A DNA stretch of 64,000 nucleotides, taken from contig CAZTRW010000001.1 in the NCBI GenBank assembly GCA_964616725.1, positions 9,465-73,464 of the forward strand, given 5' to 3'. This stretch comes from an uncultured bacterium. Its GTDB lineage: Bacteria > Cyanobacteriota > Cyanobacteriia > Cyanobacteriales > Desertifilaceae. Position numbers and translations under genes: made by a program. Below, piece after piece: positions 23,521-62,122 of this stretch. The notes under the pieces were generated by a model. That model searched no databases. It had not been told where the DNA came from and saw only the letters and a list, made by a program, of their open reading frames with translations. Every line of letters starts with the position of its first letter. Position 1 is the first letter of the stretch.

Positions 23521-23576
23521 GCGATCGCCTAGCGACTCCGTAGGAGTATCGCCCAGGGACTCCGTAGGAGTATCGC
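23521..23576 (+). repeat. HIP1-anchored 24-nt hairpin element, 2 tandem units (intergenic)
   Basis: GCGATCGC + CTAGCGACTCCGTAGGAGTATCGC + CCAGGGACTCCGTAGGAGTATCGC. Confidence 0.85.
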
Positions 23577-23642
23577 CCAGCTATTTTCCTCGCCATTGTA
23601 CTGGATAAAACTTCTGTTTCAAGTTATTTTTTTGTCATGGTT

Positions 23643-23707
23643 TGGTTAACGATCTATTAAGAAAATGTCCCGACAAAACTCGACAAAACTTTAGATTGTC
23701 TTAACTT
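23643..23707. promoter_or_regulatory. Candidate SphR (Pho) boxes in the divergent promoter
   Basis: Minus strand CTTAATAG-N3-GTTAACCA (23661-23643) and plus strand CTTTAGAT-N3-CTTAACTT (23689-23707). Both have 11-bp spacing and resemble PyTTAAPyPy(T/A), imperfectly. Confidence 0.45.
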
Positions 23708-23762
23708 AAAATAGTCTACCTATAGGAGAAAATTGCTTCGGCATCCTAATTCTCCCTCGACT

Positions 23763-24485
23763 ATGACCAAGATTCAATTGGTTGTGTTTGATATGGCTGG
23801 CACCACTGTCAAAGATAACAAGGAAGTTGAGCAGTGCTTTTTGCAGGCAGCAGCACAAACTGGATTAACCGCCCCATCTGATCGAGTCGTTGCGATGATG
23901 GGATGGGCAAAGCGATTGGTTTTTGAAACCCTTTGGCGTGAGCAGTTAGGGAAAGATCATCCTGATTACCCGCAAAAGGTTGCCCAGTCTTACGAGCGGT
24001 TTACGGAGATTCTAGAGCACCATTATCTCACTGAGCCGGTTGCAGCGATCGCCAACTGTGCAGAAGTATTTGCATGGCTCAAACTTCAAGGCATCAAAAT
24101 TGCCTTGAATACAGGATTTTATCGTAAAGTTACCAATATTATTCTCCAGCGATTGGGCTGGGATCAGGGCTTAAATCAAAACTATATCGGTTCAGAAAAT
24201 GCCATCATTAGTGCTTCGATTACCCCTTCAGAGATTTATAATCAAGAAGGTCGTCCAGCACCTTATATGATTCAAAAAGCCATGTACCAATTGGGGATTA
24301 AAGATCCTCAAACCGTAATCGCCATTGGAGATACCCCCTCAGATATTCAAGCCGGAAGAAATGCCCATTGCCGCTTTTGCTGTGGAGTAACCTATGGCAC
24401 CCATACCCAGGAACAACTCATACCCTATGGTCCCGATAGATTACTCAATTCTTTATGGGAAATTAAGGAAATGATTGAGCCATGA
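23763..24485 (+). CDS. PhnX-like HAD hydrolase (phosphonatase-like)
   Basis: VFDMAGTTV, cap motif MGWAK (position of the Schiff-base Lys), IALNTGF, GRPAPYMI, AIGDTPSD. Confidence 0.8.
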   Translation: MTKIQLVVFDMAGTTVKDNKEVEQCFLQAAAQTGLTAPSDRVVAMMGWAKRLVFETLWREQLGKDHPDYPQKVAQSYERFTEILEHHYLTEPVAAIANCAEVFAWLKLQGIKIALNTGFYRKVTNIILQRLGWDQGLNQNYIGSENAIISASITPSEIYNQEGRPAPYMIQKAMYQLGIKDPQTVIAIGDTPSDIQAGRNAHCRFCCGVTYGTHTQEQLIPYGPDRLLNSLWEIKEMIEP

Positions 24486-25606
24486 ACAGGGCAGATGTCA
24501 TTATTATTGGGGCAGGAATTGTGGGATTAGCCCATGGTTTAGCAGCGGCGAAAAAAGGATTGAGTGTGGTCATCTTTGAACGCCATCCCCAAGCAGTTGG
24601 GGCATCAATCCGCAATTTTGGCATGATTTGGCCCATTGGTCAACCCCAAGGAAAATTAAGCGATCGCGCCCTTCGTTCTCGCGACATTTGGTTAGAAATT
24701 GCCGCCCAAGCAGGCATTGCTATTGATCCTTGTGGCTCTTTACATCTGGCTTATCGAGAAGATGAATTAGCCGTGTTACAAGAATTTATCGATACAACAG
24801 ATCGCCCCGGCATAGCACTACTCACCCCAGACAAAATATTCGCCAAAAGTCCAGCCGTTAATCCTAAAAAATTGCTGGGTGCTTTGTGGAGTCCCACAGA
24901 AGTCATTGTCGATCCCAGAGAAGCGATCGCCAAAATTCCTCTGTTTCTTACTCAAGCATATCCCCTACAAATCCACTGGAATACAGCAGTCACCGCCATT
25001 AACTTTCCCCAAATTCTCGCAGGCACAGAAATCTGGCAAGCCAATCATCACATTTTCCTCTGTAGCGGCATAGACTTTGAAACCCTTTATCCCTCCCTTT
25101 ATCAAAACAGTGGCTTAACCAAAGTCAAGCTACAAATGATGCGAACTGTACCTCAACCAGAGGGGTTTAAAATCGGCGTACCGCTCTGTGGAGGACTCAC
25201 CCTCACCCATTATAGTGCCTTCAGCCATTGCCCCTCTTTACCAACCCTCAAAAGCCGTATTCAACAAGAAACTCCCCACTTTCCTCAATGGGGTATTCAT
25301 GTGATGATGTCTCAAAATGCCACAGGAGAATTAATCCTAGGAGATTCCCATGAATATGGCTTAAATCTCGATCCCTTCGATCGCAGTGCAATTAATCAGT
25401 ATATCTTAGCCTATTTGCAATCTATGGTACAGGTTCCCACCTTAGAAATTGCCCAAACTTGGCATGGCGTTTATGCTAAGTTAGCCGGGAAAACCGAGTG
25501 GATTGAGACTCCCCAACCAGGAGTAACCCTTGTCAATGCCCTCGGTGGGGCAGGAATGACCTTATCATTCGGATTAGCTGAAGAAATTGTAGGGCGATCG
25601 CTATAA
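24482..25606 (+). CDS. FAD-dependent oxidoreductase of the phosphonate-associated TIGR03364 type
   Basis: GAGIVGLAH, GASIRNFG, ILGDSHEYG, GGAGMTLSFG; ATGA overlap with the HAD gene. Confidence 0.8.
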   Translation: MNRADVIIIGAGIVGLAHGLAAAKKGLSVVIFERHPQAVGASIRNFGMIWPIGQPQGKLSDRALRSRDIWLEIAAQAGIAIDPCGSLHLAYREDELAVLQEFIDTTDRPGIALLTPDKIFAKSPAVNPKKLLGALWSPTEVIVDPREAIAKIPLFLTQAYPLQIHWNTAVTAINFPQILAGTEIWQANHHIFLCSGIDFETLYPSLYQNSGLTKVKLQMMRTVPQPEGFKIGVPLCGGLTLTHYSAFSHCPSLPTLKSRIQQETPHFPQWGIHVMMSQNATGELILGDSHEYGLNLDPFDRSAINQYILAYLQSMVQVPTLEIAQTWHGVYAKLAGKTEWIETPQPGVTLVNALGGAGMTLSFGLAEEIVGRSL

Positions 25607-25703
25607 ACTCCATCAAAACGGCCACCTTTCAGGCATAATCAAAAAAGATCAGAAGAGGTAAGAGATCCATTCCCTCTTTCCCCTTCAACTCAACCAGAAC
25701 ACT

Positions 25704-26474
25704 ATGATGGGATTAAACGGCATTCATACCGCCCAAGCTTTAATTATCGGGGGCAGCGGGGGTATTGGTTTAGGATTTGTGAAAAAACTCTTACTTGATC
25801 AGCAGATATCCAGGATTTACGCTACCTATCGCCGTCCTGAATCTGCGGTTGAACTGTTAGACTTGCAAGAGAGTAACCCGGATTGTCTTCATTGCTTGCC
25901 AATGGATATTACTGACGAATCTCAGATTACCGCAGTTCTGGGAAAGATTCAAGAGCACACCAGTAAACTTCATTTAGTGATTAATGCCGTCGGGATTCTC
26001 TACGAAGGATTGTTACAACCAGAAAAAAGCCTCAAACAAATTAACTCTGAGCATCTATTGCGCTACTTTCAAGTTAACAGTATTGGAGCGGTGCTGCTGG
26101 CAAAACATCTGTTGCCCCTGTTCCATCATGGCGATCGCAGTATTTTCGCTACCCTATCTGCTAAAATTGGCAGTATCGGCGATAATCACATGGGCGGATG
26201 GTACGGTTACCGAGCCTCTAAAGCGGCGTTAAATATGTTCATGCGTACTGTGGCGATCGAATACCAACGCAAAAGTCCCCATACCATCATTGTGCTCCTA
26301 CATCCTGGCACCACCGATACTCCCCTTTCCCAACCCTTCCAAAGAAATGTTCCTCCCGAAAAGTTATTCTCTGTTGATCGTAGCGTTAACCAGCTTTGGG
26401 AGATTATTAACCAGTTAGAGGATAAAGATAAAGGTCATTTTTTCTCTTGGGATGGTACTGTCTTACCCTGGTAA
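25704..26474 (+). CDS. Short-chain dehydrogenase, CsgA/C-factor-like
   Basis: GGSGGIG, SAKIGSIGDN..GGWYGYRASKAALNM, LHPGTTDT. Confidence 0.87.
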   Translation: MMGLNGIHTAQALIIGGSGGIGLGFVKKLLLDQQISRIYATYRRPESAVELLDLQESNPDCLHCLPMDITDESQITAVLGKIQEHTSKLHLVINAVGILYEGLLQPEKSLKQINSEHLLRYFQVNSIGAVLLAKHLLPLFHHGDRSIFATLSAKIGSIGDNHMGGWYGYRASKAALNMFMRTVAIEYQRKSPHTIIVLLHPGTTDTPLSQPFQRNVPPEKLFSVDRSVNQLWEIINQLEDKDKGHFFSWDGTVLPW

Positions 26475-26491
26475 GGAGAGCATTCTCACCA

Positions 26492-26517
26492 CAAAGACAC
26501 AGAGGACACCAAGTTTT
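26492..26517 (+). repeat. CAAAGACACA-GAGGACACCAAG short dispersed repeat (uninterrupted copy)
   Basis: 24/26 identical to 12553-12562 joined to 12584-12599 once the 21-nt element is removed. Confidence 0.65.
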
Positions 26518-26633
26518 CTCCGTAGAAGGGAATTTCGTGTGATTTAAGTCACATTAGCGAGGGGAGTTGATCACGGCTAAAACTATTTTGATCGCTCATA
26601 GTGAAACTATAGGACTCGTGTTTTGACTAATTT

Positions 26634-26918
26634 ATGTTACCCAAACATCAACTCCTGCCTGGGGCTATCTCCGAGATTCTAGTTTCTGCACGAGAAACAG
26701 GGACTTTGACACTTGCCGATCGCTATGGTCTCATGGCTGCTGCCCTAGATGAAACCCTACCTGAAGAAGATCAACGCTCTGTCAATCGGTTGCTGCGATC
26801 AGTGATGCAAGGAAAAATTAAACTCAGCGATGAACTTTCGACTATTCATTGCGGCTCTTATCCTCCCTTATTACCTCTGTGCGGCTCTCCCCACTCCTCT
26901 CTGTTATCCTCCACTTAA
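26634..26918 (+). CDS. Conserved small cyanobacterial hypothetical protein
   Basis: LLPGAISE...TLADRYGLMAA...LLR pattern; the C-terminal tail may be a read-through. Confidence 0.6.
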   Translation: MLPKHQLLPGAISEILVSARETGTLTLADRYGLMAAALDETLPEEDQRSVNRLLRSVMQGKIKLSDELSTIHCGSYPPLLPLCGSPHSSLLSST

Positions 26919-27998: not shown

Positions 27999-28031
27999 AG
28001 AAAATGAAATCAGGTTAGGCGCTGATGGTGA

Positions 28032-29498: not shown

Positions 29499-29563
29499 GA
29501 GGCTGCGATGGGGGTTTCGTCGGCCATTATCTTACCAAATTGGGTTTTATGACATACTCAGAT

Positions 29564-30394
29564 TTAGACATCTTCGTGGGCGAAGCGACGATAGAGGAAA
29601 TCGAGGGCGTAGTTTCGCAATTCGTAGAAACGAGGGTCTTCCATAATGCGAGCGCGATCGCGCGGTCGAGGGAAAGGAATATCAATAATATCACCAATGG
29701 TGGCGGATGGCCCATTGGTCATCATCACCAGGCGATCGGCTAAAAACAACGCCTCATCGATATCATGGGTAATCATCAGCACTGTGCAGCGATTGTTTTG
29801 CCAAATAGTGAGCAATTCTTCCTGGAGTTCTTCTTTGGTAATGGCATCGAGAGCGCCAAATGGCTCGTCTAATAAGAGCATACGAGGACTCATGGCTAAG
29901 GCGCGGGCGATCGCCACCCGTTGCTTCATCCCCCCAGACAACTCATGGGGGCGCTTATGAGCCGCGTCACTCAAGCCAACCATGGCCAAATATTCCTGGG
30001 CAATGGCCAACTTTTCCCGTTGAGATTTGCGCTTAAAGGTGGCGTGAACCCCTAGCCACACATTTTCTAGAGCCGTTTTCCAGGGGAGTAGGGAATAATT
30101 TTGGAACACCATCATCCGATCCGGTCCCGGTTGGGTAATGGGGCGATCGCCGAGATAAATGGCTCCTAAAGTGGGTTGGATAAACCCCGCCACCATATTT
30201 AGTAAGGTGGATTTGCCACAGCCTGAATGGCCAATGAGGGTAATAAATTCTCCTTCCTGTACTGCCAGATCCAGATTTTCAATCACAGGATAAGGGCCAT
30301 TTGGGGTGGGATAAATCTTAGAGATATTCTGAACTGACAGCAAGGGCTGGGTAAGCATGGAATGAGATAGAGGAATGGAAGAAAGAGGGGGCAT
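29564..30394 (-). CDS. nrtD: Nitrate/nitrite ABC transporter ATP-binding subunit D
   Basis: GHSGCGKST, PGPDRMMVFQ, LSGGMKQR, MTNGPSATIG; last gene of the operon. Confidence 0.9.
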   Translation of the reverse strand: MPPLSSIPLSHSMLTQPLLSVQNISKIYPTPNGPYPVIENLDLAVQEGEFITLIGHSGCGKSTLLNMVAGFIQPTLGAIYLGDRPITQPGPDRMMVFQNYSLLPWKTALENVWLGVHATFKRKSQREKLAIAQEYLAMVGLSDAAHKRPHELSGGMKQRVAIARALAMSPRMLLLDEPFGALDAITKEELQEELLTIWQNNRCTVLMITHDIDEALFLADRLVMMTNGPSATIGDIIDIPFPRPRDRARIMEDPRFYELRNYALDFLYRRFAHEDV

Positions 30395-30429
30395 GGCAGG
30401 AGAAGAGGATAGGGGGCTGAAAATAGACC

Positions 30430-32430
30430 TTAAGCGGCTTGTCTGGAACCATCGAGGTTCACTTCTTCAATACGCAGATCCCGCTTGATCGGCAATTGGT
30501 ACAAGTAGTCTAAGGGGTTATTAGGATCAAATAGGGTCTGATCAAACACAGAGAAGGGTTTAGGAGTTGGCTCTACGTCTGGCAATCCCAAGTCTCGTGC
30601 TGCCCGGCTGAATAGATCCAAACGGCGAATCCGTTGCAAAGCATCTACCCAGTTTCTGGGGAAGGGAGTGATGCCCCAACGAGCCAGTTGGTTCATGATC
30701 CAGAGCGCTTCTCCTCGGTTGGGACAGTTGGAGCGATCAAAGAAAAATCGGTTGATAGAGGGCAACTTTTCTGATTCTCCCCCTTTTTCTCGCAGGTAAG
30801 GCTCCAGGAAACCCGGAGCGGTATAGACGCGATCGCTACCCACATATTCCGGCAGGCAAAGGAGATCGAGGATTTCTGGGCGATGACGGGGATCGTCACA
30901 ATACTCACAGGCTTCTAAGAGAGCTTTCAGCAGAGCCAGGTGGATATCTGGGTGCTCGTTGGCATAGTCTTCCCGCATTCCGAATACTTTTTCGGGATGA
31001 CTCGGCCACAGGTCTAAGCTAGTCGCGATCGCAAAGCCTAAATCCTCATGGACAGCACGAGAGTTCCACGGCTCACCCACACAGTACCCTTCAATGTTAC
31101 CCGCCTTGAGGTTAGAGACCATTTGGGGAGGGGAAATTACACTGAGGTTGAGATCGCCATCCGGATCAATGCCCCCACAGGCCAACCAATGGCGCAACAG
31201 GAGATTATGCATCGAAGCTGGATGAACCACGCCCAAGGTGTGGGGTCGATCCGGCGTAGCCAAGAAAGCCGCTTTGAGGTCTGCTAGGGTTCTTACGCCC
31301 TGTTGATAGAGTTTTTTGCTCAGGGTAATCGCATTGCCGCCGCGACTGAGAACCAGAGCAGTAACAATGCTGACAGGAGGTTGCTTGCCCAACCCTAGAG
31401 TGAGGGCAATGGGCATCCCCGCCACCATTTGGGCCGCATCAAGGCGGCGGTTGATTACCCCCTCAGCGATCGCCGCCCAACTTGGTTCTCGACTGAGAGT
31501 AACCTGTTCGAGACCCTGTTTTTTGAAAAACCCTTTTTCTTGCGCCACAATGAGAGGGGCACAATCCGTAAGCGGAATAAAACCTATTTCCAGCGGCTTT
31601 TTCAGTCCAGAGGTCACCACCGCCGCCGCCGGGATAGCTTGTCGGCGTTTCGCCCGTTTTTGTTGGTTGAGAAAATAGATAATATCGTTGCGTAGTCCGT
31701 AGTAACTCGGATGATTGACCACTTCTAGGCGTTGGCGAGGGCGGGGGAGGGGAACATCGAGGATTCTACCCACCCGCGATTCTGGCCCATTGGTGAGCAT
31801 GACAATCCGATCGCTTAACAATAAAGCCTCATCCACATCATGGGTAACCATGATACAGGTAGCATGGCTTTCTTCGCAGATTTGCATCAGGCGCTCTTGC
31901 AAGCTAGCGCGCGTGAGCGCATCCAGAGCACCAAAAGGTTCGTCTAAAAGTAACAATTTGGGGCGAATCGCTAGAGCGCGGGCGATCGCCACCCGTTGCT
32001 TCATCCCCCCAGACAACTCATGCGGGAACTTATGCTTAGCAGGGTGCAAGCCTACCCAGTCAATATGTTGGTTAATCACCTCACGCCGCTCACCCGTCGG
32101 CAGATGTTGCATCACCGCATCCACCGCTAAAGCCACATTTTGAAACACCGTTTTCCACGGGAGCAAAGAATAATTTTGGAAAACCACCATCCGATCCGGC
32201 CCCGGTCGCACCACCTCTTTCCCGTCCAAAACCACACCGCCGCTAGAGGCACGATCTAAACCCGCCACAATCCGTAATAAAGTAGACTTACCACAGCCAG
32301 AATGACCGATTAACGAGATAAATTCACCTTTCTCGATAGAGAAATTAATGTTTTTCAGAGCCACATAGGGATCCCCATTCGGTAAAGGAAACACCTTATC
32401 TAAGTGGTCAATCTCAACAAAGTTGTTCAT
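30430..32430 (-). CDS. nrtC: Nitrate/nitrite ABC transporter ATP-binding subunit C with NrtA-like C-terminal regulatory domain
   Basis: ABC domain followed by GFIPLTDCAPL...CVGEPWN. Confidence 0.9.
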   Translation of the reverse strand: MNNFVEIDHLDKVFPLPNGDPYVALKNINFSIEKGEFISLIGHSGCGKSTLLRIVAGLDRASSGGVVLDGKEVVRPGPDRMVVFQNYSLLPWKTVFQNVALAVDAVMQHLPTGERREVINQHIDWVGLHPAKHKFPHELSGGMKQRVAIARALAIRPKLLLLDEPFGALDALTRASLQERLMQICEESHATCIMVTHDVDEALLLSDRIVMLTNGPESRVGRILDVPLPRPRQRLEVVNHPSYYGLRNDIIYFLNQQKRAKRRQAIPAAAVVTSGLKKPLEIGFIPLTDCAPLIVAQEKGFFKKQGLEQVTLSREPSWAAIAEGVINRRLDAAQMVAGMPIALTLGLGKQPPVSIVTALVLSRGGNAITLSKKLYQQGVRTLADLKAAFLATPDRPHTLGVVHPASMHNLLLRHWLACGGIDPDGDLNLSVISPPQMVSNLKAGNIEGYCVGEPWNSRAVHEDLGFAIATSLDLWPSHPEKVFGMREDYANEHPDIHLALLKALLEACEYCDDPRHRPEILDLLCLPEYVGSDRVYTAPGFLEPYLREKGGESEKLPSINRFFFDRSNCPNRGEALWIMNQLARWGITPFPRNWVDALQRIRRLDLFSRAARDLGLPDVEPTPKPFSVFDQTLFDPNNPLDYLYQLPIKRDLRIEEVNLDGSRQAA

Positions 32431-32463
32431 GATGATAGCAAATAAGTAAAGAGTGAACTCAGA

Positions 32464-33306
32464 TTAAGAAGGTTCACCGGGGACAATCCGGTTGGCAATA
32501 AAAACCACCAACTTATCAAGGAGCAAGCCGACAACACCCACATAGACCAGCGCCAGAATAATCTCACTAATCAGAGAACTATTCCAAGCATCCCAGATGA
32601 AAAAGCCGATACCCACACCCCCAATCAGCATCTCCGCTGCCACGATCGCCAACCAAGAAAGACCCACCCCAATTCTTAACCCCGTAAAAATATAGGGCAC
32701 AGTAGCTGGAAAAAGCACCTCAAAGAAATAATCCTTTCCGGACAACTGCAAAACACGCGCCACATTTTTATAGTCCTGGGGAATGCGTTGCACACCCACC
32801 GCCGTATTGATAATGATCGGCCAAATAGCCGTAATAAAAATCACGAAAATGGCAGAAGGTTCACTGTTACTAAAAGCCGCCAAAGAAATAGGCAACCACG
32901 CCAGAGGTGGGACAGTACGCAACACTTGGAACATAGGGTCTAGGGCATCATAGAGTAAACTGCTACACCCAATAGCCATACCGAGAGCAATCCCCGCGAT
33001 CGCCGATAAAGAAAAACCGATCGCCACCCGCCGTAAACTCGCCAGAATCTGCCAAAACAAACCCTTATCAGTACCCCCATTATCAAAGAAAGGATTAATA
33101 ATCAAATCCCACGTATCTTGCAGAACCTTAATCGGGCCAGGTAAAGGAGCTTGTGGACTCGCACACAGCAGTTGCCAAAGCGTTAAAGTAATCAAAAGCG
33201 CGATCGCCGACACAAAAAACTGGCGCGTATTTTCAGAAAACCATACCAACAACACCGCCCCAGGAAAGCGACGCGATCGGCCACGAGAAGAAGAAGAAAG
33301 AGTCAT
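32464..33306 (-). CDS. nrtB: Nitrate/nitrite ABC transporter permease
   Basis: DKGLFWQILASLRRV, LRTVPPLAWLP, AWLAIVAAEM. Confidence 0.9.
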   Translation of the reverse strand: MTLSSSSRGRSRRFPGAVLLVWFSENTRQFFVSAIALLITLTLWQLLCASPQAPLPGPIKVLQDTWDLIINPFFDNGGTDKGLFWQILASLRRVAIGFSLSAIAGIALGMAIGCSSLLYDALDPMFQVLRTVPPLAWLPISLAAFSNSEPSAIFVIFITAIWPIIINTAVGVQRIPQDYKNVARVLQLSGKDYFFEVLFPATVPYIFTGLRIGVGLSWLAIVAAEMLIGGVGIGFFIWDAWNSSLISEIILALVYVGVVGLLLDKLVVFIANRIVPGEPS

Positions 33307-33343
33307 AAAACAGAAAAAAGGAAAATAGAGTAAAGAGAAAAAG

Positions 33344-34687
33344 CTAGACCTTCTTAATGTCTAACGAATCTAGATAAGCTTGAGGATTCTCAGGGTCAAA
33401 AGACTTACCATCAAAGAACGTCTCCACACCCCGCGACGGACTACTGGGAATATCAGCCGCTGAAACCCCCAGCGCTGCCGCAGCCTCCCGCCACAGATCC
33501 TCACGATTCACCTGATCAACCAAAGCCTTAGTATCCAGCGTCGGATCTAACATACCCCAGCGGATATTCTCAGTCAGGAACCAGAGATCATGGCTCTTAA
33601 AAGGATAGGAAGCAAAATCGCGCCAGTATTTTTGCATCAAATCCTGGTTTTCCATCTCTCGCACCCCAAAATTGAACTTACCCAGAGAGCGATCGATAAT
33701 ATCCTCATACGGAACCTTAAACCATTCCCGTTTCGCCAAAATCTGACACATTTCCGGCTTATTCACATCCAAATCACACCATTGCTGAGCCTCCAAAACC
33801 GCCATCAACAACGCTTTAGCCGCCTTCGGATATTTATCCACCCAATCCGCACGCATTCCCAAAGCCTTTTCCGGATGATCTTTCCACAACTCCCCAGTAG
33901 TTAACGCCCCATAACCAACCTCTTGATTCACCGTTTGCAACGGCCAAGGTTCACCCACGCAAAAAGCCTCCATCGTACCCGTTTTCACATTCGCCACCAT
34001 TTGCGGCGGAGGAACCACAATCGTGGACACATCAGCATCAGGATCAATACCACCCGCCGCTAACCAATAGCGGAGCCACACATCATGAGTACCCCCAGGG
34101 AAAGTCATCGCCACTTTAATATCTTTGTTATTCGCTTTCGCTTGCGCAAAGACCCCTTTGAGGGGAGAGCTATCCAGACTCACCTTCAGATCCTTGTAAG
34201 TATTAGCAATTTGAATCCCTTGCCCATTCGTATTCAGCCGGGCCAGAATATACATCGGCACCGGTTTACCATCAGTAACCTTACCCGTGGAAATCAAGTA
34301 AGGCATAGGCGTGAGGATATGTGCCCCATCAATACCGCCCCCGGCAGAACCGAGGACGAGGTTATCACGAGTGGTACCCCAAGAGGCTTGTTTGACAACC
34401 TGTACCTCTGGCATTCCATACTTGGCAAATATCCCTTTTTCTTTGGCAATAATTAGGGGGGCAGAGTCGGTGAGAGCAATAAAGCCTAAAATCGCACTAG
34501 TTACTTCTGGGGTTTCCAGGGCAGCGGTAGGAGAGGGGGAGGCACTCGAGGGAGTCGCAGCAGAGGGGGAAGGGCTGCTAGTTGCTTCAGGAGCGCTGGA
34601 AGTGCCACCACAGCTATGCAAGAGCAAGGCACTGGTGGTAGTAGCTCCAGCCGTGAGTAGAAATTTGCGTCGCGAAAAGTTAGACAT
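33344..34687 (-). CDS. nrtA: Nitrate/nitrite-binding lipoprotein
   Basis: Tat-like SRRKFL signal; QASWGTTRDNLVLG, HILTPMPY, CVGEPWPLQTV, KDHPEK match NrtA rather than CmpA. Confidence 0.88.
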   Translation of the reverse strand: MSNFSRRKFLLTAGATTTSALLLHSCGGTSSAPEATSSPSPSAATPSSASPSPTAALETPEVTSAILGFIALTDSAPLIIAKEKGIFAKYGMPEVQVVKQASWGTTRDNLVLGSAGGGIDGAHILTPMPYLISTGKVTDGKPVPMYILARLNTNGQGIQIANTYKDLKVSLDSSPLKGVFAQAKANNKDIKVAMTFPGGTHDVWLRYWLAAGGIDPDADVSTIVVPPPQMVANVKTGTMEAFCVGEPWPLQTVNQEVGYGALTTGELWKDHPEKALGMRADWVDKYPKAAKALLMAVLEAQQWCDLDVNKPEMCQILAKREWFKVPYEDIIDRSLGKFNFGVREMENQDLMQKYWRDFASYPFKSHDLWFLTENIRWGMLDPTLDTKALVDQVNREDLWREAAAALGVSAADIPSSPSRGVETFFDGKSFDPENPQAYLDSLDIKKV

Positions 34688-34960: not shown

Positions 34961-36166
34961 CTAAACGTCCCCAACGGGTGGCATTGTTTCGTGATGATGG
35001 TGATGAGGATCGTGGTGATGATGGTGATGATGGTGGGAGTGCGTAGTAGTTGCTATTCTCGCAGAATTCACCACTAAAGCCTCTTGAGAAAACAGATTTT
35101 CTAAGTGAGGATTTGCCCAATCTGCTGCCATTTTGAGAAACTCTGGATGATCGTTAGCACATTCCATTTGGATATAGGTAATTTCTGGATGCTGGCGCTG
35201 CAAAGCTTCAATAATATGAGCAACATCTAACAGGGTTTCGTGGTTTTCTGTGACAAACCCAATCGGCATAAACAGAATCGCCTTAGCGCCGAGTTTAATC
35301 AGGTTTTCGGCGGCGAGTTTAACAGGGGGTTGAGTCCATTCGATCAAAGGAGTATCATGGTTGAGCCAGCCGATGGAAATGAGGGGATATTTGTCAATTA
35401 ATTCTTCTCGAACTGATTCATAGAGGCTTTGGCTTTCGGTGATTCCAGAGGTAAATCCTTTGGCTTTGTGAGGACAACCGTGGTTCATGAGCACAATTGC
35501 GGTTTGAGAAGGTAAGCAGGAATCTTGCAATTCATGGGCGATTTTTGCTTCTACTAATTGAGCCATCAGCTTAATGTAAGCCGGTTGGTTATAGAAGGAA
35601 GGAATATAACGCTCTCCAGTTACCCAATGGGGAGTCGATTTTTCTTGAGCGAGGGCTTGATTGACTTGCTCGATCGCAATGCCACTAGTGAAAATAGAGT
35701 CAACCACTAATAGGGGATAGATCAGGAGTTTGTCGAAGCCTTCGGCTTTAATTTCCGCTAATACTTGATGGGGCAGGAAGGGAGCACAAAAGTTAAAGGC
35801 TTTGAATACTTTAACGCGATCGCCCCATGTTTGCTGTAAATACTGCTCAATCCCTGCGCGCTGCTTCTCAAAGATGGCATTATGGGGAGAGATAAAATGA
35901 CCATGCTGGTGATTCCACTCGTGAAAGTCAAATATTGCCAGCAGTTTGGCAAGAGGGGGATAAATCCAGGCGGGCACCGGCGCAAATTTGGCAGTCAGCA
36001 GGTTGAGTGCTTGTTCATTATAGTTGGCAAAGTCATCATAACTTTCTACTTCACCATATCCCATGAGCAGGACGGCAACGCGAGAGGCTTGGCGATCGCG
36101 AAGCGACTCCCCAGGAGTATCGTGAAGCGACTGTTGTTGAGACTGTTTTTCAGAAGTGGTAACCAC
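34961..36166 (-). CDS. Ferrochelatase-like class II chelatase with poly-His C-terminus
   Basis: AVLLMGYG, FNFCAP, LIYPL, MNHGCP, GWLNH, PIGFVTENHETLLD; tail HSHHHHHHHDPHHHHH; no CAB domain. Confidence 0.78.
   Translation of the reverse strand: MVTTSEKQSQQQSLHDTPGESLRDRQASRVAVLLMGYGEVESYDDFANYNEQALNLLTAKFAPVPAWIYPPLAKLLAIFDFHEWNHQHGHFISPHNAIFEKQRAGIEQYLQQTWGDRVKVFKAFNFCAPFLPHQVLAEIKAEGFDKLLIYPLLVVDSIFTSGIAIEQVNQALAQEKSTPHWVTGERYIPSFYNQPAYIKLMAQLVEAKIAHELQDSCLPSQTAIVLMNHGCPHKAKGFTSGITESQSLYESVREELIDKYPLISIGWLNHDTPLIEWTQPPVKLAAENLIKLGAKAILFMPIGFVTENHETLLDVAHIIEALQRQHPEITYIQMECANDHPEFLKMAADWANPHLENLFSQEALVVNSARIATTTHSHHHHHHHHDPHHHHHETMPPVGDV
36092..36123 (+). repeat. HIP1-anchored 24-nt element inside the chelatase gene
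   Basis: GCGATCGC + GAAGCGACTCCCCAGGAGTATCGT; adds 8 in-frame residues on the minus strand. Confidence 0.8.
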
Positions 36167-38324: not shown

Positions 38325-38339
38325 GGTTCCCGCGTGAAT

Positions 38340-42214: not shown

Positions 42215-43777
42215 ATGTCCTATCCCTTGTCCCTGTTGATATTTACTGTTGTTGCTGGTGGGATAATCATGCCGCCGCCAGCGGTGAGTCCTTCCCTCTC
42301 CCTTACTGCTCTGGCGGTGAAGGGAAAACCAGCCAATGCCCCCCACTTTCTCCTCGCACAGAGCCACCCAGAAAATGCCTGCGCCGAGGGACTCGCCCTA
42401 GCTCAAGCCGCAGTGAAAGAAGGAGAGCAGGCAACCACTGCCCAACAATGGACTCAGATTGCCCAAAAATGGCAACAAGCATCGGACTTAATGGTCAAAG
42501 TCTCCCCAGAAAATAGCTGTTACGCCCAGGCTCAAGAACGGATCGAATTCTATCGCCGCAATAGTGAAATTGCCCTAGAGGAAGCGCAAAAAAAAGCCTC
42601 TATTCCCCTCCCTAATCTCGCCATAGGTGCAGAAGGGAAAGAAGTTCAGCAACTTCAGCAACGGCTCAAAGAACTGGGTTATTTTTCCGAAACTGTCAAT
42701 GGCATTTATGGAGAAACCACGGCTACCGCTGTCACAAATTTTCAAAGAGCTACGGGACTAGCAGCAGATGGTCAAGTCGGACAAAACACTTGGGATAAAT
42801 TACAATCAGCTAGTCCTATCATCTCTTCTCCTTCCCCCACTCCGCCAGAGAGTTTAGCCGCCAAACCCAGACAGAGAAGGAATCAAAAGAAGCGTTCTTT
42901 TACCGAGGGGTTAGTGGGTTGGGTGATGATGGGTTTAGGGGGATTAACCGTTTTAGGGGGGACAGTTTTTATTCTCCTGAAGCTCTTAAATCGGACGGAA
43001 GATGAGGAAGACTTAGAAGAGGAAGAACCAGAAGCGTTGGTGACTTCAGATTTGCCAGAGAATGTAGCATCTCAAGCCTTGGTAGCTTCTGGGGATGGAG
43101 AATCTGTCGAATCATCAACGAATGGTCATCCAGAAGTTGTTTTGGGGGGGGCGAACTCTCAGTCAGATCTAGAGCCAAGTTCTGGTACGGTGGAGTTGCC
43201 AAAAGAGATGCCTTCTCCAGAGAATCCTGTCTCTTCTGGGGAGTTGGTGCCGGTGAATGAAACGACTCGTCTGCCAAAGATGGGTATTATTGATGATTTG
43301 ATTAAGGATTTACAAAGTGCCGATCATCAAAAACGCCGTCAGGCAATTTGGGAGTTGGGACAACGGGGAAATTCTTTGGCAGTACAACCTTTGTTGAATT
43401 TATTGTTGGATTCTGATTCGGGACAGCGGACGTTAATTTTGTCGGCGCTTTCGGAAATTGGGGTGAAAACGATAAAGCCGATGAATCGGGCTTTATCGTT
43501 ATCGTTGCAGGATGATAATCCAGAAGTGAGAAAAAATGCGATTCGGGATTTTACGCGGATGTATGAGTTGATTGCGACGGTGAGTCATATGATGTGTCAT
43601 GCGGTCGATGATCCGGATCGGGAGGTGCAAGAGGTGGCAGAGTGGGCGGTGCGCCAGTTGCGACGGATTAGTGCTGCGTCAAATTTGGTTAAACTGAAAG
43701 AGGATCGGTCTTCGCGATCGCGCAGCGACTCCGCCGGAGGAGCACCTGATGAGTTTTTAGAAGACGAAGAGAGTTGA
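42215..43777 (+). CDS. Membrane protein: peptidoglycan-binding domain + TM + HEAT/PBS-lyase repeats
   Basis: VQQLQQRLKELGY..NGIYGETT..AVTNFQR..GL.ADGQVGQNTW; TM at about aa 235-258; RRQAIWELG, VRKNAIRD. Confidence 0.8.
   Translation: MSYPLSLLIFTVVAGGIIMPPPAVSPSLSLTALAVKGKPANAPHFLLAQSHPENACAEGLALAQAAVKEGEQATTAQQWTQIAQKWQQASDLMVKVSPENSCYAQAQERIEFYRRNSEIALEEAQKKASIPLPNLAIGAEGKEVQQLQQRLKELGYFSETVNGIYGETTATAVTNFQRATGLAADGQVGQNTWDKLQSASPIISSPSPTPPESLAAKPRQRRNQKKRSFTEGLVGWVMMGLGGLTVLGGTVFILLKLLNRTEDEEDLEEEEPEALVTSDLPENVASQALVASGDGESVESSTNGHPEVVLGGANSQSDLEPSSGTVELPKEMPSPENPVSSGELVPVNETTRLPKMGIIDDLIKDLQSADHQKRRQAIWELGQRGNSLAVQPLLNLLLDSDSGQRTLILSALSEIGVKTIKPMNRALSLSLQDDNPEVRKNAIRDFTRMYELIATVSHMMCHAVDDPDREVQEVAEWAVRQLRRISAASNLVKLKEDRSSRSRSDSAGGAPDEFLEDEES
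43714..43745 (+). repeat. HIP1-anchored 24-nt element (diverged) in the 3' end of the PG-binding/HEAT gene
   Basis: GCGATCGC + GCAGCGACTCCGCCGGAGGAGCAC, encoding RSDSAGGA. Confidence 0.65.
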
Positions 43778-51029: not shown

Positions 51030-51051
51030 AGTGATCTGTTTTTATGGTAAA

Positions 51052-54177: not shown

Positions 54178-54284
54178 GGAACTTTATGTAAAATTGACTA
54201 CGTTTTGAACAAGGATAACTCTGTCCTCAGTTGTGTAAATTTTATTTTACCTATCTTCATATTGTTGGTAAATCTTCATACTTT

Positions 54285-54617: not shown

Positions 54618-54705
54618 GGTCTGGTTTGGGAAGGTTATTGTTGACAGTATAGGCCGAGTGACTAAGAATTGGGGAAATCGTCAATGATTTGGTAATCTGA
54701 GATAC

Positions 54706-55338: not shown

Positions 55339-55360
55339 AAATCCAGGGTATTGATGGGGG

Positions 55361-56005: not shown

Positions 56006-56016
56006 CTCCGATTCTC

Positions 56017-58485: not shown

Positions 58486-58843
58486 ACTCTTAAACCCATA
58501 ACAGTTGGAGATTACCGTATTTTGTCATAACTTGGGTTATTCCTGGCCCAGTGCGCCAGGAAAAACACCATCAAACTAAGAGTCGTTGAGTCATCATGAC
58601 TTCAGCGTATTTTTGTATCCGGCGTGTTATGGCGATCACCGCATAACACCTAATTAGCCCTCAGACCTTCTATGGGGCAGGTGACAGAGAGTTGTCTGTC
58701 GGCATTGGGATTCAGAAACCATAAATTTGCTGGTGGAAAAGCATCTTGAGCAGTGATGCAGTGTTTCAGCTTGCTCAATGGAATGAATAGGAATCAGGCT
58801 ATACTAGAGAGTAAAGTTGGAAGACCCAGAGGCGGTAAGTGCA

Positions 58844-59908
58844 ATGGTTCAAAAAATTGCCCTTTTCAATCACAAAGGTGAAGTTAGCAAAACTACAACT
58901 ACTTTCAACCTTGGGTGGATGCTTGCCTCAAAAGGGAAAAAGGTAATTCTTGTCGATACTGATCCACAATGTAACCTAACTGGCATGGCTTTGGGAGAAG
59001 AAACAGAGGATGATGAAGCAAGAATAGCAGCAATTTACAATACACGCTCGAATATAAAAACAGGTCTAGCACCAGCTTTTGAGTCGCAACCAAAAGCTAT
59101 TGAGGCAGTGGACTGTATTCCTATTGAAGGGCGAGATGGGCTATTTCTACTACCTGGTCATGTTGGTTTCGCAGAATATGAAGTTACACTAGGCATTGCT
59201 CAAGAGCTAAGTGGCTCAATCCAGGCTCTCAAGAATTTACCTGGTTCCATCACGGATTTGTTAGAGAAAACTGCCCAAAAATTTGATGCAGATTATATTC
59301 TGATCGATATGAGTCCTAGCTTGGGAGCAATCAACCAGAATCTTCTGATGACCAGCGACTTTTTCATAGTGCCTACTACTGCTGATTTCTTTTCTGTAAT
59401 GGCAATTGACTCTTTGGCTAAAGTGTTGCCGAAATGGTATGCGTGGGCAGAATCAGCTAGTTCGCTCCAAATTTTGAAAGACGCTACATATCCGTTTCCT
59501 GACGTTACACTTCGTTTTTTGGGAATCATCATTCAGAATTATCGAATCATTCGCGGTAAAGAGACTGCTGCGTTTGAGACATGGATTCAGAAAATTGAGG
59601 AAGATGTTTCCTCTAAGCTAGTTCCGGTACTTCATAAGAGGAATATGATGCTACCTGAGCAGGTATATACTGAACAAGGTATTGGTAGCAGTTTTTGTCT
59701 AACAAAAATTTCCAACTTCAATAGCCTTATTGCGCTTTCTCAAGAGCATCGCACTCCAATCTATGCTCTTACTGCTCAGCAATTAAGGCAAACAGGAGTA
59801 GTGCTACAAAATAATCAGGCAAAGCAAGCTGAGTTTCAGCAAATGTTTGAAGACCTGGCAGATAAGATCATCGGATTAACCTCTGTTTCCTATGCTGTCA
59901 GCGCTTAA
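58844..59908 (+). CDS. ParA/Soj-like ATPase with altered Walker A (KGEVSKT)
   Basis: IALFNHKGEVSKTTT, LVDTDPQCNLT, ILIDMSPSLG; start set at MVQKI. Confidence 0.82.
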   Translation: MVQKIALFNHKGEVSKTTTTFNLGWMLASKGKKVILVDTDPQCNLTGMALGEETEDDEARIAAIYNTRSNIKTGLAPAFESQPKAIEAVDCIPIEGRDGLFLLPGHVGFAEYEVTLGIAQELSGSIQALKNLPGSITDLLEKTAQKFDADYILIDMSPSLGAINQNLLMTSDFFIVPTTADFFSVMAIDSLAKVLPKWYAWAESASSLQILKDATYPFPDVTLRFLGIIIQNYRIIRGKETAAFETWIQKIEEDVSSKLVPVLHKRNMMLPEQVYTEQGIGSSFCLTKISNFNSLIALSQEHRTPIYALTAQQLRQTGVVLQNNQAKQAEFQQMFEDLADKIIGLTSVSYAVSA

Positions 59909-60275
59909 TCAATTCCGAATCAGTATTACTCGTGTTCGAGATCTGATTTCTATCCATAACTCTGTTAAAGCTCAGTCTACTCCTGCATTGGATTTATCAG
60001 ATATATTGAGAGCCGCTCTAGTTCTAGCTGTGAGTGCCTTAGATTACTATGTTCATGAAGTTGTAACGCTAGGAATATTGGAGATTCATAGAGGGCAACG
60101 TTCTGAACCTAACCCTCCGCCGAATAGTTCTCAATCCACATTTTCTCGCTTTCAGGTTTCATTGGGTAGCGCACGACAAGAAAGATTGATAGCAATGGAT
60201 ATAGCTTCTTGGCTAGAGAATGAAATCCAGCAAAGTCAAGGCTCTTTATTTTTGCAGCAGTTCTACACTGACTAA
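59892..60275 (+). pseudogene. Truncated HEPN-like (RiboL-PSP-type) protein
   Basis: LRAALVLAVSALDYYVHE matches the N-terminal half of this family as I recall it. The ORF ends at 127 aa with no RxxxxH motif, and I found no continuation downstream. Confidence 0.6.
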
Positions 60276-60417
60276 AATCCAAATCTTTAACCCGTAGTCG
60301 TAAGCCCTCTATTATTCGCAACTCTGCCCCATAGAGTATCCCTCTTCTGTCACTCTCCGGTTTTTTCTATGATTAATAATTTCCAGATCTAAGGTATACT
60401 CAGGGATGCAGAGTGTG

Positions 60418-60449
60418 GCGATCGCGCAGCGACGGAGCAGGAGTATTGC
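60418..60449 (+). repeat. HIP1-anchored 24-nt element (intergenic)
   Basis: GCGATCGC + GCAGCGACGGAGCAGGAGTATTGC; 1 mismatch to unit 3 at 61560. Confidence 0.8.
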
Positions 60450-60595
60450 CGTTTAGCCCCTGGGCAGACTCTGAGGAATTAAGATTCAGAAAGAATGGCG
60501 CGATCGCCTGCCTTATCTACACTCTCAGATTCCGAAAAGCTTTAGGTTTTCGGAAAGTGACAGCAGAGGGTTATGTTGCCTGAACTGAGCGAGTG

Positions 60596-60634
60596 AAGAA
60601 AAAGATCGCATTCTGAACCCATCAGAATGCGATC
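60596..60634 (-). terminator. Rho-independent terminator
   Basis: 13-bp perfect stem GATCGCATTCTGA/TCAGAATGCGATC followed on the minus strand by TTTTTCTT. Confidence 0.7.
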
Positions 60635-60759
60635 GTGCGTGTTTCCAATTCTCTTGTTGAGACCCAATGACTTGGACTTCACTTAGCGTTGCTGGTACTG
60701 AGAGAATCTACTCACTCTTTGGGCAAACTTCTCGCTCAGTGAATGAATAGCGCTGTTCA

Positions 60760-60873
60760 TCAAGCATTAGATGCTTCCCTTGCTGCAACCAGCAGATCTG
60801 ACAAGGCTTGAACGGATGCACTATCGGTCTGAGGTGACTGTAGAACGAACACCTTGAGTTTTCTCTGTTGCAT
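60760..60873 (-). CDS. 37-aa small protein, hypothetical
   Basis: MQQRKLKVFVLQSPQTDSASVQALSDLLVAAREASNA; AAGGAG 6 nt upstream of the ATG; terminator downstream. Confidence 0.4.
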   Translation of the reverse strand: MQQRKLKVFVLQSPQTDSASVQALSDLLVAAREASNA

Positions 60874-60891
60874 TCGCTTCTCCTTGAATAA

Positions 60892-61128
60892 CTAACCTAC
60901 CGCCACGATAGAGTGTCGCTCGGGCCGAACTATTTCCTCCACGCATCCGGGTTGAATTGTTAGTATCCACCTGGGAAGAGGTTTCTGGTTGTGCGTAACT
61001 TGCACGGCGACTTTGTGCTGTAGCTTGATTGGTGGAAGTTGACAGTAATAAGGCGATAATAAGGCGATCGCTGCTGCTGATAATGTAGTAAGGTATTTCT
61101 TGTGGATTGGATTGAGATTAAATCTCAT
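60892..61128 (-). CDS. Small hypothetical protein, possibly exported
   Basis: 78 aa with a hydrophobic N-region, but only 29 nt from the divergent ndhS start. Confidence 0.3.
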   Translation of the reverse strand: MRFNLNPIHKKYLTTLSAAAIALLSPYYCQLPPIKLQHKVAVQVTHNQKPLPRWILTIQPGCVEEIVRPERHSIVAVG

Positions 61129-61157
61129 GATATGGATAACTTACGAGGTAATTAACC

Positions 61158-61343
61158 ATGATTTTACCAGGTGTGGCAGTTCGCGTGAAAAATATCGGTG
61201 ATACCTACTATGGGTTTACAGGACAAGTACAACGGGTGACAGATGGCAAAGCCGCCGTGTTATTTGAAGGCGGGAATTGGGATAAATTAGTCACCTTTCG
61301 CTTGGCTGAGTTGGAAATTGTCGATCCGACGACGAAGAAATAG
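61158..61343 (+). CDS. ndhS: NDH-1 complex subunit NdhS
   Basis: [39 protein letters not shown]. Confidence 0.93.
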
Positions 61344-61351
61344 ATCGGGCT

Positions 61352-62122
61352 ATGCGTTTACCCTTACCTTTGGTTAATTCTAGCGATCGCCCCAAAAACC
61401 ACATCGCTGAGGTGATTGAAACAGCCACCACGGAGTTTTTAGCCGAATGTCTGGAACCCGAAAGCCTGAGTTTTCCCATCATGCCTGCTTTCGGAACTTT
61501 TGTGCGATCGCGCAGCGACTCCCCAGGAGTATCGCGCAGCGACTCCCCAGGAGTATCGCGCAGCGACGGAGCAGGAGTATCGCGTAGTGACTCCCTAGGA
61601 GTATCACTCTCTGAAGAACCTGACTCTCCCTATTGGGTATATGCGGTAGTATATCACGCCACTACCACCCCCATTGATTCCATCCATCGCGCCAGAGCAT
61701 TAGGATTATCCTTAGAACAACTGCGGGAAGAACAACCCCAAATCTTCGCCATGCTCAAAACAGAATTTAGAGCCGCCATTGTCGGATTTGAAACCCTCGA
61801 AAATCTTGGTACTTCTACCCCTCGTTCCCGCATTTACCAGCACTTACCCCCTCGTCCCCCTCAAATTCACCAGGCAATTTATCAATGTACTCCTGAAGAA
61901 GTCCTCCGATTTACTCATCAAGTAGATTTTATCCGCATTCTCCTAGAAATTCCCGGTACTCCTGTCGATGCCTTGATTGCCGCCACCTTGAGATCCATTT
62001 ATCAATTTAGACCCACAGAACGATCTTGGCTCGTACAAGCGGGACGACATTTAAGCTTATTAGTCAAAGATGATTATGACCGGCTACGCTATATTTTGAG
62101 TCAGGTTTATCTGGCCAATTAA
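61352..62122 (+). CDS. HAS-barrel domain protein carrying a 32-aa repeat insertion
   Basis: HIAEVIET.TTEFLAEC, PIDSIHRARALG, EQPQIFAMLKTEF, KDDYDRLR. Confidence 0.82.
   Translation: MRLPLPLVNSSDRPKNHIAEVIETATTEFLAECLEPESLSFPIMPAFGTFVRSRSDSPGVSRSDSPGVSRSDGAGVSRSDSLGVSLSEEPDSPYWVYAVVYHATTTPIDSIHRARALGLSLEQLREEQPQIFAMLKTEFRAAIVGFETLENLGTSTPRSRIYQHLPPRPPQIHQAIYQCTPEEVLRFTHQVDFIRILLEIPGTPVDALIAATLRSIYQFRPTERSWLVQAGRHLSLLVKDDYDRLRYILSQVYLAN
61504..61607 (+). repeat. HIP1 plus four tandem 24-nt elements, in frame
   Basis: Units at 61512, 61536, 61560 and 61584 encode RSDSPGVS, RSDSPGVS, RSDGAGVS, RSDSLGVS. Confidence 0.92.

Follow-up and report, generated by a model that had tools for sequence, protein, structure and literature searches.

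Five loci in a 64-kb stretch of chromosome from an uncultured cyanobacterium of the family Desertifilaceae (64,000 nucleotides of contig CAZTRW010000001.1, called here the window) carry 24-nt units embedded in the octamer GCGATCGC, the highly iterated palindrome HIP1. No octamer is more over-represented in cyanobacteria than HIP1, and what it does has been a matter of debate for about 30 years. We interpret the five loci as copies of a non-autonomous, 24-nt small dispersed repeat (SDR) of the SDR5 type that lives in HIP1 and is mobilised in trans, and we give this interpretation a probability of roughly 0.7.

Nine 24-nt units were identified at the five loci of the window, every locus beginning within HIP1 (Table 1). 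The loci follow the formula GCG^[ATCGC-NNA-GCG-ACTCC-NNN-GGAGT]n^ATCGC, in which the left border is an intact HIP1 and the right border consists of only the last five HIP1 bases. A search with AGCGACTCCNNAGGAGTATCGC allowing up to three mismatches gave seven matches, all on the + strand, where the shuffle expectation was 0.00; with up to four mismatches all nine units were retrieved, again on the + strand only. Tandem Repeats Finder reported period-24 arrays at 23524-23581 (2.4 copies) and 61507-61605 (4.1 copies) with the consensus ATCGCGCAGCGACTCCCCAGGAGT, and the family was the top-ranked dispersed direct repeat in a repeat search of the window. HIP1 itself occurs 99 times in the 64 kb (1.5 sites per kb) against 0.62 sites expected, and five of these 99 sites carry units; the GC content of the window is 46.6%. 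The five loci are those at which the original prediction, made from the sequence alone, had placed 24-nt units. That prediction had the units start directly after GCGATCGC. The anchoring on HIP1 stands, but the natural phase lies after the GCG of HIP1; the only difference between these descriptions is in the 5-nt overlap ATCGC. A target-site duplication of ATCGC is not demonstrable, because the unit boundary is ambiguous within these 5 nt.

Each unit is composed of ATCGC, a triplet NNA (mostly GNA; loop 1), GCG and a 13-nt hairpin ACTCC-NNN-GGAGT, whose central triplet is loop 2. The variable positions are exactly these two triplets and all the remaining positions can pair. In the unit at 43717-43740 the 3' half is degenerate, with GGAGG replacing GGAGT and AGCAC replacing the right-hand ATCGC.

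The units are additions to HIP1 sites that existed beforehand. Each of the three genic copies adds a multiple of 24 nt (with 6 nt more at one locus) relative to the Roseofilum orthologues. The HAS-barrel protein has 256 amino acids in the window and 218-226 in about 100 orthologues, the surplus residues being exactly the repeat. Two Roseofilum-type contigs (L107 and L109) show an empty HIP1, GTG CGA TCG CTC, at the codon of the 61504 array, where the window reads GTGCG[24 nt]x4ATCACTC, and over this array a more distant relative, from another hot-spring run (X2), is shorter by 102 nt. Similarly, the ferrochelatase linker has 21 amino acids in the window and 13 in Roseofilum casamattae and Roseofilum BLCC-M154; the site is empty in both, with GGCGATCGC followed directly by TAA in the former and by CAA in the latter, and the window has GGCGATCGC plus one unit. 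Intact, unoccupied HIP1 in sister genomes, which had been named beforehand as a check, was thus found in Roseofilum orthologues at the 61504 and 36092 positions. At the third genic locus, the tail of the peptidoglycan-binding (PG-binding)/HEAT protein is 8 amino acids (24 nt) longer in the window than in four Roseofilum-type orthologues, which are without HIP1 there. Roseofilum genomes bear copies of their own at other loci (L064, L094, L104), and in Roseofilum BLCC-M154 the part corresponding to its copy locus (L094) is not syntenic with the window. This presence and absence across relatives fits a mobile repeat.

The units are also copied from other copies. The unit at 60421-60444 has GACGGAGCAGGAGT in place of GACTCCNNNGGAGT, which swaps the 5' stem arm and abolishes the hairpin fold, and the unit at 61555-61578, 1.1 kb away, is the same aberrant variant. 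The 24-mer ATCGCGCAGCGACGGAGCAGGAGT is identical at the two loci, and this identity in an aberrant form implies templated copying. The non-pairing variant GCGACGGAGCAGGAGT thus occurs twice in the window, at these two positions. A second non-pairing variant, GCGACGACCYRGGAGT, was seen in three stretches from two metagenome-assembled genomes, Oscillatoriales M59 (L047, L093) and MFD02581 (L101). Such recurring variants may be dead subfamilies that are still being copied.

Enrichment beyond the five loci, another of the checks proposed with the original prediction, was found in other genomes and in the source metagenome alike. Species-representative genomes were scanned for exact matches to the 21-nt core GCGACTCCNNNGGAGTATCGC, which gave at least 106 stretches of other cyanobacterial genomes; the copy statistics given here refer to the 115 exact copies among the matches listed (L001-L106). 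The carriers among these listed matches are, on the Nostocales side, Nostoc, Calothrix, Tolypothrix, Scytonema, Fischerella and Anabaena and, elsewhere, Oscillatoriales M59_W2019_021 (16 stretches), Crinalium, Microcoleus, Microseira, Alkalinema, Petrachloros, Nodosilinea, Elainellaceae, Coleofasciculaceae and Roseofilum. A relaxed search returned 151 matches, compared with 4 borderline ones in reversed-sequence controls. Plasmids carry the element as well: plasmid pCC7120beta of Nostoc PCC 7120 has the copy gcgatcgc-aca-gcgactcc-gca-ggagt-atcgc in a HIP1 site inside a DUF6884 gene, and the plasmid collection also yielded the element in Anabaena variabilis ATCC 29413 (again in a HIP1 site) and in other Nostocaceae. 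The window unit equals the Nostoc PCC 7120 and A. variabilis copies at all conserved positions. Viral contigs yielded no copy. In the source metagenome, contig depth climbs from about 5-10 to 100-150 precisely over the element, and many contigs with unrelated flanks share exactly HIP1, unit and ATCGC, the match starting at the first HIP1 base and ending after ATCGC.

The listed copies show how arrays grow. Units of one array share their loop bases despite the 27 different loop-2 triplets found across the copies, so that local duplication is the main way in which arrays grow. Among 12 genuine multi-unit arrays, the first unit was nearer to the consensus than the last in nine, equal to it in three and farther from it in none (sign test, about 0.004). 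The window arrays obey the same polarity, the unit beside the intact HIP1 being the most canonical and the 3' units decayed. This polarity suggests that the events by which arrays grow begin at the intact HIP1 side. Beyond the 36092 unit, the 14 nt at 36119-36132, immediately 3' of it, repeat the start of a unit (ATCGTGAAGCGACT), with the gene still only 24 nt longer than in Roseofilum; they may be a partial second unit or a similarity of the target. Partial ends resembling this one were also seen in L074 and at 23572-23581. A weak match to a unit, GAAGCGACTACCCTGGAGATTAT, lies at 618-640 on the - strand; it looks like a decayed unit and is without HIP1, and although an old remnant was considered it is probably due to chance.

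The left octamer of the 115 copies bears on the phase of insertion. It is GCGATCGC in 43 copies and GCGTTCGC in 19, and near variants make up most of the others. GCGTTCGC was found only at the left edge of arrays, linked to a loop 1 of GGA, and in no window copy. Since the A-to-T variant at HIP1 position 4 is confined to the left edge and linked to this loop, position 4 seems to be part of what is copied, and this agrees with the phase given in the literature, between nucleotides 3 and 4. A 22-nt insert accompanied by a 2-bp AT duplication from a symmetric staggered cut is a possible description of the same sites, which we favour less because the A-to-T change goes together with a GGA loop 1 and so seems to move along with the unit. 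Among 106 copies no target duplication was found beyond the ambiguous ATCGC. We considered and rejected an 8-bp target duplication (ATCGC plus NNA): only 5 of 106 copies have the loop 1 triplet again behind the right ATCGC, with 1.6 expected by chance, and at 61504 the left loop, GCA, differs from the TCT of the target side. We also rejected the possibility that the 13-nt hairpin is the mobile unit and lodges in the second HIP1 of a pair separated by 3 nt: [A/T]TCGC-NNA is found upstream in almost all copies, the arrays repeat every 24 nt, and no empty GCGATCGC-NNA-GCGATCGC precursor occurs in the window.

It is highly improbable that the units are not mobile at all, that is, that slippage produced them independently at each locus or that they are maintained for a protein-coding or regulatory function. 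The tandem arrays with their shared loops do prove local duplication, and the encoded peptides are hydrophilic and lie in tolerant regions, as such an origin would have it. Yet it would have to account for 19 fixed positions that recur at unrelated loci, read in either coding orientation and in every frame, between genes and in many genera, for the empty orthologous sites and for the identical aberrant unit at two loci.

The base pairing of the stem is conserved through compensatory changes. We scanned metagenome contigs for GCGATCGC-NNA-GCG-N13-ATCGC, a pattern that leaves the stem free, with high-GC soil contigs as the control for chance matches. A fully paired 5-bp stem was present in 15 of the 26 contigs of at most 58% GC, compared with 1 of 94 high-GC chance matches, and at least four stem pairs in 21 of the 26. 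There were 13 different fully paired stems, including TCTCC/GGAGA, TGTGG/CCACA, TACCT/AGGTA, TAGGC/GCCTA, TCGCC/GGCGA and ACTCG/CGAGT. In the alignment of the 26 contigs 83.8% of stem cells were paired, against 48.9% in shuffles and 32-48% when the partner was slid; double-sided stem changes numbered 44 against 16 in shuffles, the observed values being reached in 0 of 500 shuffles, and the covariation score was 0.847 against 0.236, with 0 of 500 shuffles as high. Individual compensated copies were found in L020, L061 and L096. The 13 covarying stems mean that hairpin modules embedded in HIP1 form a larger set, in which the ACTCC/GGAGT form of the window is one widespread subfamily.

Other modules of the 24-nt class were seen in HIP1 or nested in loop 1, among them CAAAGGCGGGGCTTTGCCC, TTTTAGCGTGCCGTAGGCAT, GTTGGCGTAGCCCGTC..GGAC and GCGTCTCCGTCAGGAGAA, in stretches L013, L025, L061, L002/L021/L093, L052/L054/L087 and L235, and Nostoc C052 has an array with TCTCC/GGAGA and GCTCC/GGAGC stems. 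These further HIP1-linked modules suggest a superfamily with nested insertions.

Two folds can be drawn for the unit. In a Y-shaped fold (A), GCGAT pairs with ATCGC and closes the mini-hairpins CGC-NNA-GCG and ACTCC-NNN-GGAGT; the alternative (B), a long bulged hairpin beside a self-paired HIP1, is the one proposed in the original prediction. Their DNA energies are close (-6 to -8 kcal/mol, z about -2), so the proposed pairing of GCG with CGC and of ACTCC with GGAGT holds as a possible fold but not as the sole one. Loop 1 is G-N-A in 90 of the 115 copies (78%) among the matches listed, and with its closing pairs gives GCGNAGC. In DNA this heptamer, described by Hirao and colleagues, forms a mini-hairpin of extraordinary stability and its RNA counterpart is much less stable (PMC13037366; PMC3201870); the segment CGC-GNA-GCG contains the exact motif. 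The second hairpin, with a 5-bp stem and a 3-nt loop, has the dimensions of the promoter hairpins of the N4 virion RNA polymerase (PMC13037366). GCGNAGC is a structural motif whereas the unit is a mobile element, and any role in priming or transcription would be by analogy. Loop 2 is R-N-A in 52 and its complement T-N-Y in 48 of the same 115 copies, where 25% is expected by chance; this symmetry might come about if the palindromic stem flips the loop.

These observations bear out the idea, put forward in the original prediction, of an SDR-like family that spreads at HIP1 without a transposase of its own: orthologous sites are empty and the distribution is wide. In the mechanism we propose, a host or transposon enzyme acting in trans would nick or cut HIP1, a folded single strand would be recognised, more likely as DNA than as RNA, and the unit would be copied into the cut HIP1, between nucleotides 3 and 4 of GCGATCGC. 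The HIP1 regenerated on the 5' side could then be used again, which would produce polar arrays. An intact HIP1 is regenerated 5' and only ATCGC is left 3' because the unit sits between nucleotides 3 and 4 of the octamer, and a DNA intermediate is preferred over an RNA one because loop 1 makes the GCGNAGC DNA mini-hairpin. One may go further and suppose that HIP1 is the dedicated target of a phylum-wide, structure-specific insertion system for single-stranded DNA, in which a HIP1-nicking enzyme would install or reinstall 24-nt two-hairpin modules made of the GCGNAGC mini-hairpin and a subfamily-specific 5-bp/3-nt hairpin. We consider this unlikely as it stands; if true, these modules would be the smallest mobile DNAs known and HIP1 would gain a concrete molecular partner.

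An RNA intermediate is said to have been proposed in the abstract of Elhai et al. in 2008. The unit would be transcribed, fold as RNA, be reverse-transcribed and be integrated at HIP1. The genic copies are indeed transcribed within host mRNAs, a 32-mer folds as RNA with -10.7 kcal/mol, and covariation cannot tell RNA from DNA. We nevertheless hold this route to be improbable. The GCGNAGC of loop 1 is exceptionally stable as DNA and far weaker as RNA (PMC13037366), copies lie sense (34) and antisense (41) to long open reading frames (ORFs) as well as between genes, loop 2 is strand-symmetric, the RNA z-scores are weak (-0.3 to -1.4) and no reverse transcriptase is encoded in the window, which covers only 64 kb.

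A route with no dedicated enzyme is, in our judgement, rather improbable too. Here a break or nick at HIP1 would be repaired by short-patch templated synthesis from an occupied HIP1, with the 8-nt HIP1 and the 5-nt ATCGC as microhomologies, and the unit would be a by-product. At a HIP1 density of 1.5 per kb microhomology can be found throughout, the units begin and end exactly at HIP1 and ATCGC, and the arrays are polar from the intact HIP1 side. Such repair leaves the compensatory pairing and the conservation of the GNA loop unexplained, as well as why just this kind of insert accumulates in HIP1, and microhomologies of 5-8 nt are very short for ectopic templating.

Orientation gave no support to insertion coupled to replication. 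The original prediction had noted, for a small sample, that all five loci share one orientation. In the window this is so, but as a property of the family it does not hold: five + loci have a probability of 1/16 and other genomes are mixed and follow no orientation rule, and the agreement is therefore a coincidence at chance level. Neighbouring copies in other genomes were in the same orientation in 7 cases and in opposite orientations in 10, and the five copies on the Calothrix NIES-3974 chromosome, at 3.19, 3.50, 3.71, 4.36 and 5.40 Mb, lie on the strands -,+,-,+,-. A shared strand as a sign of replication-linked insertion was rejected on these two grounds. With respect to host genes, 34 copies are sense and 41 antisense, all frames are used, and 75 of 136 events fall inside long ORFs.

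Several points weigh against the interpretation of the five loci as trans-mobilised SDR5-type copies. The insertions are derived but not demonstrably recent, since the closest relatives share only 58-82% amino acid identity. The nick at HIP1, the single-stranded DNA intermediate and the dedicated enzyme are steps that we infer, and in the window no transposase, reverse transcriptase or HUH nuclease is encoded among the approximately 55 ORFs scanned against Pfam. The folds are predicted to have only modest energies (-6 to -8 kcal/mol, z about -2), and loop 2, constrained yet strand-symmetric, misfits a single functional strand. The interpretation does not account for GCGTTCGC as the left HIP1 in 19 of the 115 listed copies (e.g. 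L003, L041, L057, L063, L067 and L083). The genome scan was ascertained with a fixed stem and the polarity of arrays is based on 12 arrays. As for the name, the identity with SDR5 rests on geometry and host genomes, not on a comparison of consensus sequences, and the period is 24 nt here against the 21 nt stated for SDR5 in a 2026 preprint; the 21-nt core GCGACTCCNNNGGAGTATCGC may reconcile the two figures.

Table 1. The 24-nt units of the window and the features around them
Feature	Position	Strand	Setting
HIP1 (23521-23528), two units (23524-23547, 23548-23571), ATCGC	23521-23576	+	divergent intergenic region
HIP1 (36092-36099), one unit (36095-36118), ATCGT, 14-nt partial repeat (36119-36132)	36092-36132	+	in hemH, antisense
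HIP1 (43714-43721), one decayed unit (43717-43740)	43714-43745	+	PG-binding/HEAT gene, sense, in frame
HIP1 (60418-60425), one variant unit (60421-60444, ATCGCGCAGCGACGGAGCAGGAGT), ATTGC	60418-60449	+	probably non-coding stretch
HIP1 (61504-61511), four tandem units, ATCAC	61504-61607	+	HAS-barrel gene, sense, in frame
First unit of 61504 array	61507-61530	+	
Second unit of 61504 array	61531-61554	+	
Third unit of 61504 array (variant)	61555-61578	+	
Fourth unit of 61504 array	61579-61602	+	
Solute-binding-protein gene	22355-23464	-	beside 23521 array
Promoter-like site	23595-23622	-	beside 23521 array
HAD hydrolase gene	23733-24485	+	beside 23521 array
nrt/cmp-type ABC transporter cluster	29564-34687		
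Ferrochelatase gene hemH	34961-36166	-	host of 36092 unit
His-rich tail of ferrochelatase	34961-35040		C-terminal end of HemH
9-nt/3-nt repeat	34991-35035		encodes His-rich tail
PG-binding/HEAT-repeat protein gene	42215-43777	+	host of 43714 unit
HEPN (RiboL-PSP)-like ORF	59892-60275		ParA-like/ndhS stretch
Region absent at Roseofilum-type loci	60276-61157		ParA-like/ndhS stretch
Segment of about 130 nt repeated in source metagenome	60443-60574		ParA-like/ndhS stretch
HAS-barrel protein gene	61352-62122	+	host of 61504 array

The window is ordinary core chromosome from a hot-spring metagenome. The ORFs scanned against Pfam are all housekeeping (e.g. RuvA, endonuclease V, DprA, an nrt/cmp-type transporter and CysS), and Rfam gave zero matches at gathering thresholds across the window, where no separate tRNA scan was made. 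For three window proteins the closest named relatives are Roseofilum species, with identities of 72-82%, 58-59% and 62%, and Desertifilum is the next named genus for two of them; both genera belong to the order Desertifilales, not to the Nostocales.

All three genic copies sit in hydrophilic, poorly conserved protein segments. The 36092 unit lies in the N-terminal linker of ferrochelatase HemH, where it is read in an antisense frame as TPGESLRD, the 43714 unit in the C-terminal tail of the PG-binding/HEAT-repeat protein, and the 61504 array in a variable loop of the HAS-barrel protein, where it encodes (SRSDSPGV)x4 with variants. We propose that copies survive in frame in variable, hydrophilic parts of proteins in either orientation because their length is divisible by 3 and open reading is possible in all six frames. 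Three loci had been predicted to lie in frame in genes; the copies in real genes are those at 36092, 43714 and 61504, and the 56-amino-acid ORF around 60418 has no support. In-frame 24-nt insertions of this kind account for 8-amino-acid indels and octapeptide repeats of cyanobacterial proteins, and short-read assemblies break at the sites of the units.

The 23521 array lies between the divergent solute-binding-protein and HAD hydrolase genes. A promoter-like site nearby on the - strand (TTGAAA-16-TACAAT, a match to the consensus only) would make the array part of the 5' leader of the solute-binding-protein mRNA, in which the unit is read antisense. The 60418 copy is found in a variable, probably non-coding stretch of 1.2 kb between a ParA-like gene and ndhS, a stretch that is absent at the Roseofilum-type loci L107 and L109. 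This stretch also includes a short HEPN (RiboL-PSP)-like ORF and a segment of about 130 nt that recurs in other parts of the source metagenome with approximately 88-91% identity. Two further repeats in the window are of other kinds. The His-rich C-terminal tail of the ferrochelatase, HSHHHHHHHHDPHHHHH, is encoded by a 9-nt/3-nt repeat, and the tails of the orthologues are similar and variable; in the nrt/cmp-type cluster, paralogous ATPase genes explain the direct repeats D3-D5, with a spacing of 2075 nt.

Elhai, Kato, Cousins, Lindblad and Costa reportedly described very small mobile elements of Nostoc, in the 21-27 nt class and including SDR5, in Genome Research in 2008. SDR4 and SDR6, from the same abstract, are said to be similarly small and to have a predicted secondary structure in common with SDR5, but reportedly differ from it in sequence and are not tied to HIP1. 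SDR5 is described as being inserted precisely between nucleotides 3 and 4 of HIP1 (PMC4390886), and Xu et al. (2018) give HIP1 as the SDR5 insertion site in Nostocaceae and report no SDR outside this family (PMC5861425); the 2026 preprint terms SDR5 a 21-nt sequence. Comparison with the published SDR families had been suggested along with the original prediction, and its caveat about novelty applies, since the geometry matches that published for SDR5 (PMC4390886). The window element, with a period of 24 nt and a core of 21 nt at five loci, falls within the size class of 21-27 nt; all five loci begin GCG^ATCGC, and the empty sites place the added DNA in HIP1; its predicted hairpin is kept through compensatory changes (13 stems, 0 of 500 shuffles); and mobility is apparent from the empty sites, the additional 24 nt at the third genic locus and the Roseofilum copies elsewhere. 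The range does differ from the published one, as the window host belongs to the Desertifilales and copies occur in many non-Nostocales; restriction to the Nostocaceae reflects the genomes available in 2008 and is not a defining property. A full-text literature search with the core sequence gave no relevant match. The element is almost certainly of the SDR5 type. Its kind is known, while its host, a Roseofilum relative from a hot spring, is new and its range is wider than published; the assignment is founded on its geometry, size class, structural conservation and presence in genomes studied in 2008.

The window therefore adds little that is new in kind; what is new is the host lineage and the taxonomic range beyond the Nostocaceae. 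This range lets phylum-wide comparative profiling seek the mobilising enzyme, and the free loop bases offer a way of tagging donor copies. The polarity of the arrays, which runs from the intact HIP1, points to events that begin at HIP1, the mini-hairpin motif specific to DNA provides a testable preference for a DNA over an RNA intermediate, and the covarying stems are a further handle on the mechanism and on the link to HIP1.

A more specific version of trans-mobilisation would be that the units are elements like the repetitive extragenic palindromes (REPs) and their REPIN combinations, moved on single-stranded DNA hairpins by a REP-associated tyrosine transposase (RAYT, or TnpA_REP) or by a Y1 HUH transposase of the IS200/IS605 type. 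REP/REPIN elements are likewise short, hairpin-forming, non-autonomous and of high copy number, and are thought to be mobilised in trans as single-stranded DNA. The unit is a short hairpin repeat with a conserved foot, its DNA mini-hairpin motif suits recognition of single-stranded DNA, and cyanobacteria have several subclasses of Y1 HUH proteins, some of them restricted to cyanobacteria (PMC6006769). We find this version quite improbable on the details. REPs are extragenic, have a 5' GT[AG]G or CGTC foot and form inverted doublets beside a RAYT gene (PMC6006769). The foot of the unit is ATCGC-NNA-GCG, with no conserved tetranucleotide of either type, GTAG appearing only when loop 1 is GTA (24 of the 115 listed copies). 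The units are 24 nt long, often intragenic and in frame, as the 75 of 136 events within long ORFs indicate, and they have an 8-bp palindrome as target and form direct tandems instead of inverted doublets; in the 64-kb window there is neither a RAYT nor any other Y1 HUH gene. The lagging-strand orientation of IS200/IS605 elements is likewise missing, given the alternating copies of Calothrix NIES-3974 and the mixed orientation of neighbouring copies.

The SDR5-type element also differs from larger non-autonomous DNAs. Cyanobacterial miniature inverted-repeat transposable elements (e.g. Nezha) resemble it in being non-autonomous, dispersed and present or absent among relatives, but they exceed 100 nt and have terminal inverted repeats and target duplications derived from a known transposase family. 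To our knowledge, no sequences other than SDR5-type units are known to insert specifically into HIP1. The element is anchored on HIP1 and regenerates it. HIP1 itself is thought, according to the 2026 preprint, to spread by substitution and not by insertion, whereas the element is an insertion into HIP1.

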